NCBI GenBank assembly: GCA_963767695.1
Contig: CAVYFE010000010.1
Location: 71,872-135,871, forward strand
Direction: 5' to 3'
From: an uncultured Solirubrobacterales bacterium
Lineage (GTDB): Bacteria; Actinomycetota; Thermoleophilia; Solirubrobacterales; Solirubrobacteraceae
DNA: 64,000 nt
Positions 4,385-10,113 of this stretch are shown piece after piece. A model generated the notes under the pieces. It did no database searches, was not told the origin of the DNA, and saw nothing but the letters and a program-made list of their open reading frames with translations. The stretch's first letter is position 1; every line of letters starts with the position of its first letter. The translations under genes were made by a program, and so were the position numbers.

Positions 4385-4654
4385 CTAAGCCGCGAATCGC
4401 TGGGCTGACCTCGCCCGGGCCTTGGCCGCCTCGGCCTCGCGATCCTTCGGTGGCGCGGAGGTCTGCAGGTCGTGGAGCAATTGCGTCGAGGCCGCGGCGA
4501 CGGCGTCGATCGCTCGTTCGAACGCCTCGGCGTTCGAACGGGAGGGCTTGCTGAAGCCGCTGATCTTTCGCACGTACTGCACGGCAGCGGCCCGCACCTC
4601 TTCGTCGCTCGCCGGGGGATCGAAGTTGTAGAGGGTTCGGATGTTTCGGCACAT
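4385..4654 (-). CDS. DUF2277-family small protein
   Basis: MCRNIRTLYNFDPPASDEEVRAAAVQYVRKISGF. Confidence 0.85.
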   Translation of the reverse strand: MCRNIRTLYNFDPPASDEEVRAAAVQYVRKISGFSKPSRSNAEAFERAIDAVAAASTQLLHDLQTSAPPKDREAEAAKARARSAQRFAA

Positions 4655-4699
4655 ACGCCAAGAGTAGAGATGTGGCGACGCATGCTCCTCAAAACGCAC

Positions 4700-4728
4700 G
4701 AAGGGCGCCGTCGACGCCGGCGCCCTTC
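4700..4728 (-). terminator. Intrinsic terminator-like hairpin
   Basis: Perfect 11-bp stem GAAGGGCGCCG/CGGCGCCCTTC, 7-nt loop, followed by GTGCGTTTT on the minus strand. Confidence 0.7.
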
Positions 4729-4729
4729 G

Positions 4730-4917
4730 CAGACTTCCTTTGGCTACCTATACCGGGTGGACTTGCTCAAAGCCGGAGGGACCAATCCCGGCGCCCACCG
4801 CGGCGGTGTCGCGGGGGGACTCCGCTAAGCGGGGTCAGCCTCCGACCTAGCGGCCGGACACCTCCAGGGTCCCGCAATAACTGTCAGACAAGCTCGGACC
4901 ACCTCCTTTCTCTGGTA
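4730..4917 (-). ncRNA. Candidate structured small RNA, possibly carrying a 14-codon ORF (4847..4891)
   Basis: TATCCT -10-like box at 4924-4929, nested long-range helices, extended SD AGAAAGGAGGTG, terminator downstream. Confidence 0.4.
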
Positions 4918-4952
4918 GGCGGGAGGATAGCGAAGCGCGGAGACGCGCTCAG

Positions 4953-7448
4953 CTATCCGTCGGGCTCGTCATCGAGCACCGCTGCGGCCGTCGCGGCCTC
5001 GGACTCAACCACCAGCGCCACGGCGCTGACCTGATCGTCGTCGCGGATGTTCATCACGCGGACGCCCTGTGAGGCGCGGCCATAGCGGTTGATTCCGCGC
5101 ACCGAGGTCCGCTGCACCATTCCGTTCTGCGAGATGAACACGAGCTCCTGATGCTCGCGCACGACGAGCGCGCCGGCGAGCTGGCCCTTGTTCTCGGTCA
5201 GCGTGATCGTCTTGACGCCCATCGTCCCACGACCCTTCACGGGGTAGTCCGGGATCGGGGTGCGCTTCCCGTACCCGTTCTCGGTCACCACCAGCAGCTC
5301 CTGGTCGTCGCGAGCGACGTCCATCGCCAGCACCGAGTTGCCCTTCTGCGACACGTTCATACCCCGCACACCGCTCGTATCGCGTCCCATCGCGCGGACC
5401 TGGCTCTCGCTGAACCGCGCGGCCTGTCCCGAACGCGAAACCATGATCACGTCGTCGTGGCCGCTGGTTCGGCGGACCGCGATCAGCTCGTCGTCGTCAT
5501 GGATGTTGATCGCGATGATCCCGTCGGCCTTGATCGGAGTGTTGTAGGCGCCGAACTCGGTCTTCTTGATCATCCCCTGCCGGGTCGCGAACACCAGGTA
5601 CTGGCCTTCGTTGAAGTCCCGCGTGGAGAGGACCGACTGGACCCGCTCGCCCTCACGCAGCGGCAACAGGTTGACGAGCGCACGGCCCCGCGCGGTTCGT
5701 GACGCCTCGGGCAGCTCGTAGACCTTGAGGCGGTAGACCTTGCCTCGGTTGGTGAAGAACAAGAGGTAGTCGTGTGTGGAGGAGACAAACAGGTGCTCGA
5801 TGTAGTCGTCGTCCTTCATCTCCATCCCGGTCACGCCGATCCCGCCGCGACGCTGCTGGCGGTAAGTCGACAGCGGCAGTGACTTGATGTAGCCCGAGTG
5901 GGTGATCGAGATCACCATCTGCTGGTCGGCGATCAGGTCCTCGATGTCAATCTCGCCCTCGGCGTGCGTGATCTCGGTCCGCCGCTCGTCCCCGTAGGTG
6001 CTGGCGATCTCCGTGAGCTCGTCCTTGATCAGCCCGCTGACCCGGCTCTCGTCGCCAAGAATCTCGCGCAGCTCCGTGATCCGCTCCATCAGATCGGCGT
6101 GCTCCTGCTTGATCTTGTCGGCCTCGAGCGCGGTCAGCCGGCTGAGGGTCAACTGCAGGACCGCCTGCGCCTGGACCACCGTCAGCTCGAACCGCTCGAC
6201 GAGACCCTTGCGCGCCGTCTCCGGGTCGCGCGAGCCGCGGATCAGCGCGATCACCTCGTCGAGGCTGTCGAGCGCGATCAGCAGTCCCTCGAGCACGTGC
6301 GCCCGCTCCTCCGCCCGGCGCAGCTCGTACTTGGTGCGGCGGATGATGACTTCGCGCTGGTGATCGACGTAGTGGCCGATCACCTCGCGCAGCGACAGGG
6401 TCCGCGGCACGTTGTCGACGAGCGCAATCATGTTGACGCCGAACGTGGTCTGCAGGGGGGTGTGCTTGTAGAGCTTGTTGAGCACGACCTTGGGAATCGC
6501 GTCGCGCTTGAGCTCGATCACGATCCGGATGCCGTGGCGGTCGGACTCGTTGCGGAGATCGCTGATCTCGGGCAGCTTCTTCTGCTCGTGCAGCTCCTTG
6601 ATCTTCAGGATCAGGCCGCCTTCGCCGTCCCGGCGCACCTGGTAGGGCAGCTCGGTGACGATGATCGCCTCTTTGCCTTGCCCGATCGGCTCGATGTGCG
6701 CCCTGCCCTGCACACGCACCCGGCCGCGCCCGGTCTCATAGGCATCCCGAATGCCGTCCCGACCGAGGATGATCCCCGCCGTCGGGAAATCTGGGCCCTT
6801 GATGTGCTTCATCAGGCCATCGACGTCGATGTTCGGATTGTCGATATAGGCGACCGTCGCGCCGATCACTTCACGCAGGTTGTGCGGCGGAATGTTCGTG
6901 GCCATCCCCACCGCGATCCCCGACCCGCCGTTGACGAGCAGGTTCGGGAACCGCGACGGCAGCACGATCGGCTCCTGGCGAGTGCCGTCGTAGGTCGGCG
7001 TGAAGTCGACCGTGTCCTGGTCGAGGTCGCGCAGCATCTCGGTCGCGAGGCGGTCGAGGCGCGCCTCGGTGTAGCGCATGGCAGCTGCCGAGTACCCGTC
7101 GATGTTGCCGAAGTTGCCGTGACCGTCGACGAGCGGGTAGCGCATCGAGAAGTCCTGCGCGAGCCGCACCAGCGTGTCGTAGATCGCGCTGTCGCCATGG
7201 GGGTGGTACTTGCCCATCACCTCGCCGACGATCTGCGCGCACTTCACGTGCTTGCGGTTCGGCTGCAGGCCGAGCTCGTTCATGACGTACAGCACGCGGC
7301 GGTGGACCGGCTTCAGTCCGTCGCGGACGTCGGGCAGCGCACGCCCGACGATGACCGACATCGCGTAGTCGAGATACGCCGAGCGCATCTCCTCCTCGAG
7401 CCCACGGGGCTCGATGTTGCCGCCGCCGATTGTGTCGATCGCAGACAT
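4953..7448 (-). CDS. gyrA: DNA gyrase subunit A
   Basis: [25 protein letters not shown], GyrA-box QRRGGIG. Confidence 0.99.
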
Positions 7449-7458
7449 CCTCGCTGCC

Positions 7459-10113
<2,655 letters not shown>

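Follow-up and report, generated by a model that had tools for sequence, protein, structure and literature searches.

Downstream of gyrA, in DNA from an uncultured Solirubrobacterales bacterium, lies a structured RNA of about 225 nt that is an independent gene with its own predicted promoter and terminator. Our preferred explanation, to which we assign a probability of about two in three, is that this is a single-copy, independently transcribed RNA gene of the Ms_IGR-5 lineage, with a design like that of the rre genes, that engages the ribosome. The argument rests on a 16-nt segment complementary to the entire 3' tail of 16S rRNA, on a short reading frame whose stop codon is fixed in position, and on a fold recovered from covariation among relatives. 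The RNA is predicted to carry the strongest conceivable ribosome-binding site. The comparative fold offers features that can be tested: a clamp, an unpaired 16-mer, a pseudoknot that mirrors the 3' end of the Shine-Dalgarno (SD) sequence, and a frame that threads through helices. Coordinates are collected in Table 1 and refer to the window, that is, the whole 64,000-nt stretch of DNA that was analysed. All the sequence features listed by an earlier, sequence-only reading of this DNA were found again at their positions when the minus strand was re-read.

Table 1. Features of the RNA locus, from 5' to 3' along the transcript
Feature	Positions in window	Strand	Basis or remark
-10 box, TATCCT (TAnnnT type)	4924-4929	-	Conserved at fixed offset
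Predicted transcription start, A of ACCAG	4916 (+/-1 nt)	-	Inferred, not directly mapped
P1a 5' strand, CCAG (clamp directly 5' of SD)	4912-4915	-	Pairs with 4864-4867
16-nt complement of the 16S tail (extended SD), AGAAAGGAGGUGGUCC (DNA AGAAAGGAGGTGGTCC)	4896-4911	-	Pairing with the 16S tail of relatives
14-codon frame (UUG, 13 codons, UAG), predicted peptide MSDSYCGTLEVSGR	4847-4891	-	TTG 4891-4889, TAG 4849-4847
Mid element, GGGAC	4869-4873	-	Partner either SD-end GGUCC (P1b, 4896-4900) or 3'-domain apical loop (PK)
P1a 3' strand, CUGG	4864-4867	-	Covariation
P2 5' strand, GGUGUC (part of second conserved GAGGUG)	4857-4862	-	Pairs with 4805-4810
PX 5' strand, GGCUG (long-range helix crossing P2)	4836-4840	-	Pairs with 4742-4746
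Small hairpin Hb, CCGC-UUA-GCGG	4822-4832	-	92.6% paired
GGAGUCC motif	4817-4823	-	Conserved across the phylum; GGAAUCC in most other Actinomycetota
P2 3' strand, GACACC	4805-4810	-	Covariation
3' domain (helices P3a, P3b and P3c, apical loop GAUUGGUCCCU)	4753-4803	-	Covariation
PK partner GUCCC in the apical loop of the 3' domain	4778-4782	-	Mid/loop co-changes
PX 3' strand, UAGCC	4742-4746	-	Variants and permutation
Intrinsic terminator, 13-bp G+C-rich stem (4730-4718 with 4710-4698) and short U run	4690-4730	-	Covariation

The 16S-tail complement and the short frame

The 3' tail of 16S rRNA was read in eight relatives (five of the same genus and three of the same order); the bacterium's own assembly lacks the 16S 3' end. 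All eight read ...GCGGCUGGAUCACCUCCUUUCU/AGGGAG, that is, the tail GGAUCACCUCCUUUCU followed by AGGGAG. Nucleotides 6-21 of the RNA are complementary to all 16 positions of this tail through 15 Watson-Crick pairs and one G.U pair, so the near-perfect Shine-Dalgarno sequence described in the sequence-only reading stands. The complementarity stops precisely where mature 16S rRNA is taken to end, a position placed by convention and not mapped. The duplex between the 16-mer and the tail has a predicted energy of -27.8 kcal/mol, compared with -9.2 kcal/mol for the canonical AGGAGG, and the 16-mer is invariant in all 85 aligned homologues. A weak start codon, UUG in this RNA, follows 10 nt 3' of GGAGG. 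The SD core, AGAAAGGAGGU, sits between P1a and GGUCC and falls within no helix supported by covariation. From the comparative fold, the RNA appears to display this site rather than hide it.

In nine actinobacterial homologues, GGACCACCUCC or GGAUCACCCCC, which is almost identical to the 3' tail of 16S rRNA, is found between the strands of P2, in the central variable region. In those lineages this element could pair with the SD over 10-11 bp and occlude it. The clade to which the window belongs has no such 16S-tail-like element between the P2 strands.

The frame that follows the complement ends at one fixed site in 145 of 146 distinct homologues, with all three stop codons in use (TAG in 114, TGA in 16 and TAA in 15). 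None of these 145 homologues has an internal in-frame stop. Stops occur in the +1 frame of 66 and in the +2 frame of 128 of them, but these are not independent counts because the stops lie partly within conserved sequence. Among the 146 homologues the start codons are TTG (72), CTG (about 31), ATG (15), AUU, AUC or AUA (9) and GTG (6), and about 12 (roughly 8%) lack a plausible start, whether canonical or near-cognate, in the right place. Conservation of the small frame, which had been put forward as a check on the sequence-only reading, is thus borne out for the open frame and its stop site; the starts are weak or missing in part of the family and the N-terminal halves differ.

These patterns could indicate that the locus is chiefly a small-protein gene, in which the 14-residue peptide is the functional product and the fold of the RNA only tunes its expression. 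Consistent with this, the frame is always open, in contrast to the other two, and the stop site is kept while the codon that occupies it varies. Codon 2 specifies serine in 41 of 59 homologues and does so with two unrelated families of codons (AGT in 25, TCT in 13), and threonine at codon 8 is specified by all four synonymous codons. Counter to this, the conserved peptide positions, G-T-x-E-V..R, coincide with strands of RNA helices, as the frame threads through P1a, the pseudoknot strand and P2, and changes in the variable 'x' codon go together with changes at the RNA's 5' end. The N-terminal halves are specific to clades (MSDS.., MHKP.. and MYGY..). Entropy by codon position places the greatest conservation at third positions, above first and second positions, in codons 2, 3 and 5. 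The RreB and RreR peptides, from RNAs that resemble this one in design, are unstructured and without phenotype (PMC5711450). Given also the weak or absent starts, we consider a peptide-centred function unlikely.

Alternatively, the RNA may be a purely non-coding decoy or sensor of the 16S tail, acting on 30S subunits or on free or precursor 16S ends, that is never productively translated and whose frame is a by-product. The extent of the complementarity, which covers the whole tail and stops at its conventional end, would suit such a role, as would start codons that are UUG, CUG or missing and an entropy profile along the frame that is not coding-like. However, a fixed stop site occupied by all three stop codons, at the end of a frame that is always open, is hard to explain without ribosomes that read it. 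In addition, ribosome footprints have been reported on Ms_IGR-5 homologues in Mycobacterium abscessus and M. smegmatis (PMC4974804), and rreB is weakly translated (PMC5711450). A decoy that escapes translation altogether therefore seems improbable to us. The comparison of homologues indicates that selection probably acts on ribosomes reading, and terminating at, the frame, and that the peptide sequence itself is probably not selected.

Transcription unit and genomic context

The gyrA gene (minus strand; Pfam DNA_topoisoIV and gyrase C-terminal repeats) ends at 4953. The RNA element begins 36 nt past its stop codon and runs on the same strand from about 4916 to about 4690. In order, the sequence 3' of gyrA comprises TATCCT, ACCAG, AGAAAGGAGGUGGUCC, the UUG frame, a G+C-rich structured stretch, the 13-bp hairpin and then GCGUUUUG.

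A TAnnnT box at a fixed offset, 7-8 nt 5' of the A in ACNNG, is present in 116 of 176 distinct upstream sequences, against a background of 0.0007 per position. We infer a transcription start near 4916 from the position of this box, from the onset of conservation and from metatranscriptome contigs that stop at 4890-4906. At the other end, the terminator stem is 97.4% paired in the 85-sequence alignment, with changes on both sides in 10 of its 13 pairs. A scan for consensus promoters and terminators returned nothing relevant at the RNA locus, where the promoter has the TAnnnT box of actinobacteria and the terminator only a short U run.

The conserved core of the RNA occurs in at least 18 metatranscriptome runs from soil, peat and rhizosphere. 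In four soil, peat and rhizosphere RNA runs, contigs from close relatives all fall within 4712-4906 and none reaches gyrA. One entire contig of 193 nt corresponds exactly to 4712-4906, at 88% identity, and derives from a relative rather than from this metagenome-assembled genome. Assembler word depth, which is a poor measure of expression, peaks at about 120 in one run, which comprises 21 million letters. In a fifth run (X9, from soil), one contig of a close relative, with 96% identity across 4772-4917, continues past the predicted start for 58 nt in the upstream direction (4917-4975), through the relative's promoter. This extension could be due to read-through transcription or to contaminating DNA.

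The element is single-copy in its own genome, and the 15-mer GAAAGGAGGTGGTCC occurs only once in the 4.5-Mb assembly. A DNA search across 41 related genomes detected the element in 35; within the genus, 23 of the 24 other genomes have it. In the order's other families, the segment that begins with the SD and ends with the stop codon shows 75-89% identity. A pattern scan of species representatives recovered at least 120 stretches; among the matches listed, the labels are mainly Solirubrobacterales, Solirubrobacteraceae or Conexibacteraceae, with Acidimicrobiia for some, which fits the Thermoleophilia named in the sequence-only reading. Together, the conserved -10 box, the covarying terminator, the presence in relatives and the metatranscriptome contigs uphold the proposal in the sequence-only reading of a discrete, structured small RNA behind gyrA.

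The position of the RNA raises the question of whether it is a cis-acting element, either a 3' untranslated region of gyrA or a terminator-controlled leader of the gene for a DUF2277 protein (PF10041, 126 bits; 4385-4654, minus strand), which begins 44 nt beyond the terminator. The short distances on either side are compatible with this, as are the relatives of the same order, where gyrA lies upstream on the same strand at 78 of 150 Solirubrobacterales-type loci and DUF2277 downstream at 25 of 150, and as is the one RNA contig that passes the predicted start. Neither neighbour is present, however, at any of 30 loci in the rest of the phylum, a pattern that falls short of the conserved linkage expected of a cis leader or riboswitch. 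On these counts, gyrA and DUF2277 represent synteny at the level of the order and are not part of the RNA unit. The RNA also lies between a conserved -10 box of its own and a strong terminator that covaries, and four RNA runs cover it and not gyrA. We regard a cis-acting role as very improbable.

Some other features of the locus may be recorded here. The order on the minus strand is gyrB, gyrA, the small RNA and DUF2277. The gyrB open reading frame (7459-10113, minus strand) is listed at 884 amino acids with an ATPase domain only from residue 121, and its true start codon is probably farther downstream. Convergent with the DUF2277 gene is a plus-strand open reading frame with an HNH endonuclease domain (PF01844; 3552-4289). 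Transcripts homologous to the DUF2277 gene were present in a peat metatranscriptome run (X23) at a word depth of 25-45. Two plus-strand open reading frames, 4472-4828 and 4672-5034, were rejected as genes: they have no Pfam match and overlap the covarying helices.

A comparative fold and its possible partner switch

Helices were derived with RNAalifold from 24 sequences and then evaluated by counting pairs in the alignment of 85. Together, the supported helices are paired in 89.4% of cells, compared with 37-46% for slid partners. Covariation scores 0.222, as opposed to 0.123 for shuffled alignments, and none of 500 shuffles reached the observed value. The check for conservation and covariation in relatives that accompanied the sequence-only reading was therefore positive on both counts. 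Constrained to these helices, the RNA folds at -101.3 kcal/mol, which is 2.3 kcal/mol costlier than the unconstrained minimum of -103.6 kcal/mol. The minimum-free-energy fold of the single sequence is a long nested structure that is unexceptional (z = -1.71). We rejected it as a guide; it is misleading in that its partner for the SD lies 5' of the transcript start.

The clamp P1a is invariant within the order and covaries across the phylum and in metagenomes, with at least 14 different helix sequences. Of 32 distinct combinations of 5' and 3' tetramers, 23 are fully paired, compared with 3.5 after shuffling (maximum 10 in 2000 shuffles). P2 is 90.8% paired and its fifth pair changes from U-A to C-G. 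In the small hairpin Hb, CCGC/GCGG is replaced by CGCC/GGCG in three homologues. The long-range helix PX has moderate support from comparative data: variants include GGCUGGA/UCCAGUC and CUGGU/ACCAG, and real partners score 5.77 against 5.24 +/- 0.08 for permuted ones. Covariation is strongest in the 3' domain, where changes on both sides are seen in all six pairs of P3b and all three pairs of P3a. A pairing partner was sought for the GGAGUCC motif and none was found; the motif may be a tertiary or protein contact.

Of the four helices proposed in the sequence-only reading, two survive this comparison. GGUGUC/GACACC exists and covaries, as P2. GGGACC/GGUCCC persists as GGGAC/GUCCC, which is invariant in the clade; about half of the sequences lack the sixth pair. 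GCUUG/CAAGU is refuted, with just 37.5% of homologue cells paired. The outer helix, GGUGG/CCACC, pairs no better than with shuffled partners; its apparent 84% pairing arises solely from an invariant strand rich in G set against partners rich in C and U, and covariation is unable to test it because the 5' strand never varies. Its CCACC (4756-4760) belongs instead to P3b, covarying with a local GGUGGG through variants such as GACGAG/CUCGUC and UCUGG/CCAGA. The partial sequestration of the SD that had been attributed to this outer helix is thus not supported. The three distal helices of that model are jointly no better than shuffles, 449 of 500 of which reach the observed value.

The comparative evidence describes a fold that is multi-domain and pseudoknotted, and not a rod with a bubble. 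A 6S- or Ms1-like RNA that binds RNA polymerase by mimicking open promoter DNA, the rod-like option in the sequence-only reading, finds some encouragement in the size of about 220 nt, the G+C-rich helices and the long nested single-sequence fold, but this option is scarcely credible given that no 6S or other polymerase-binding small RNA family matches positions 4500-5100 at E values up to 10, that the single-sequence fold is not exceptional, that the outer helices of the rod fail the comparative test and that covariation favours separate domains and crossing helices.

The mid element deserves particular consideration, since it has two candidate partners. The GGUCC at the end of the SD can pair with GGACC to form P1b, and the loop sequence of the 3' domain is identical to that SD end; the P1b and PK duplexes have equal stacking energies, -7.1 kcal/mol each. 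GGGAC/GUCCC is invariant in the clade of the window, and in other lineages mid element and loop change together (CGAC/GUCG, AGAC/GUCU and GGAU/AUCC), as they do within a single lineage (GCGAC/GUCGC and GUGAC/GUCAC). A hairpin loop bearing GUCC is found in 95% of sequences with GGAC, as opposed to 11-33% in the other classes of mid element, although the automatic loop search is noisy in metagenome hits, where it meets GUCGAC terminator loops and unrelated architectures of other phyla. Only the G-to-C and C-to-G classes are clear, and those for A and U draw on a few examples within lineages. With P1b and PK both invariant in the clade, a swap of partners is suggested only by the other lineages and by the equal stacking energies.

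Under our preferred explanation of a ribosome-engaging RNA, these elements would work together as follows. The 4-bp clamp P1a directly precedes a 16-mer with which the single-stranded 3' tail of 16S rRNA can pair over its full length, and through this 16-bp duplex the RNA would dock very tightly on the 30S subunit. Docking would free GGGAC from GGUCC in P1b, and GGGAC could then pair with the identical GGUCC-type sequence in the loop of the 3' domain. We infer this swap on 30S binding from the identity of the loop with the SD end and from the equal energies of the two duplexes. Alternatively, the pseudoknot between mid element and loop may keep the SD open all the time. The RNA would be translated rarely or slowly, and an elongating ribosome would have to unfold the core of the RNA. 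The property under selection is then more likely to be the engagement of RNA and ribosome than the peptide.

Relation to Ms_IGR-5, CC2171 and the rre genes

At gathering thresholds, a search of Rfam found only a tRNA elsewhere in the window and no match at the RNA locus, consistent with the sequence-only reading, which had been unable to assign a family. That statement holds at curated thresholds but not below them. A relaxed search matched RF02471 (Ms_IGR-5) over model positions 1-184 at 18.5 bits (E = 0.05). This lies below the gathering score of 45, which is why standard annotation misses the RNA. Under strict filters RF02471 also misses the bacterium's own genome, and it scores 26.4 bits in a genome of the same genus. 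Across the phylum it matches 49 of 151 genomes, with one match each in 48 of the 49, and the scores grade from 185 bits in mycobacteria-like genomes down to 22 bits. The family is thus present in about a third of the sampled Actinomycetota genomes, and curated thresholds miss its form in the Thermoleophilia.

Reciprocal evidence comes from a covariance model, R1, for which the sole input was the first 114 nt of 67 copies from Solirubrobacterales. R1 matches the window once, at 135 bits, and it recovers all 30 of the phylum loci detected with RF02471, of which 19 exceed the cut-off, with matching coordinates and E values from 2e-13 to 6e-3. Because this reciprocal search links the two groups, the RNA is, on the evidence of the model matches, homologous to Ms_IGR-5 and a divergent, sub-threshold member of that family.

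Ms_IGR-5 (M. smegmatis IGR-5, or ncMSMEG15794c) is, like the RNA described here, a single-copy, stand-alone transcript of Actinomycetota. The two have in common, in the 5' part, the -10 box, A-CNNG, AGAAAGGAGGUG(G/A)UCC and a short frame, and, further along, GGAC-CNNG-GAGGUG, a fixed stop, GGA(A/G)UCC, a 3' strand of P2 ending in ...CACC and a 3' hairpin with a GUCC loop. The Solirubrobacterales form differs in its CCAG/CUGG clamp, its short central region, the extra long-range helix PX and a separate terminator hairpin. Homologues of Ms_IGR-5 are expressed in Streptomyces (PMC8079986, PMC8780764) and in M. smegmatis (PMC10454040), and we found no function for them in the literature. A set of metagenome contigs (L189-L308), probably from other phyla, has the same layout of SD, mid element and GAGGUG with other clamps (ACUG/CAGG, CACC/GGUG and CACU/AGUG) and different 3' architectures.

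A second family, RF01867 (CC2171, a Caulobacter small RNA), gave a weak full-length match of 21.5 bits (E = 0.02; cut-off 75). CC2171 shares GAAAGGAGGUG(A/G)UCC near the 5' end and a 3' terminator with the RNA in the window, the similarity being confined to the SD and the terminator, and it comes from a different phylum. The RF01867 search returned no loci from control genomes.

A further parallel is with rreB and rreR, described as 'small mRNAs with extended Shine-Dalgarno'. The rreB mRNA is 165 nt long; its SD spans 17 nt and its frame, which begins with GUG, has 14 codons (Hahn et al. 2016, RNA Biol, PMC5711450). It co-sediments with the 30S subunit, its weak translation is due to the long SD and the GUG start, and its stability depends on the start codon, replacement of which stabilises it (PMC5711450). 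Over-expression has no growth phenotype and no role is known (PMC5711450); a simple role as a ribosome sponge is therefore doubtful.

The RNA in the window resembles these genes in design, as judged from their published description. Both are small stand-alone transcripts (165 nt and about 225 nt) in which at least 16 nt complementary to the entire 16S tail lie upstream of a short open reading frame. In both, the frame has 14-18 codons and a non-AUG start, and conservation runs by clade while the genomic context is not conserved. There are also differences. The rre genes are described only in Alphaproteobacteria, whereas the RNA reported here belongs to the Actinomycetota. In the rre genes the complementarity extends as far as the initial G of the GUG start, whereas here it ends at 4896 and the UUG begins at 4891, with 4 nt between them. 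Finally, the rre SD is predicted to lie partly inside a hairpin with a 5-nt single-stranded seed, whereas the SD core here lies in no covariation-supported helix. Of the options raised in the sequence-only reading, a small-peptide mRNA or dual-function small RNA fits the Ms_IGR-5 and rre class; its repression by a fold-back that occludes the SD is not supported.

It is tempting to consider that Ms_IGR-5, the rre genes, CC2171 and the Solirubrobacterales form are one ancient and very widespread class of ribosome-engaging RNAs, built on a scaffold with a GGGAC partner switch, that report on or adjust the supply of free 30S subunits, or the activity of initiation factors. We regard so broad a unification as doubtful. 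Leaderless translation is prominent in Actinomycetota, and if the idea were true, such RNAs might, for example, alter how much translation is SD-led and how much is leaderless. RNAs of the Ms_IGR-5 and rre kinds were already known; to these, the present analysis adds a sub-threshold member and a better-supported fold.
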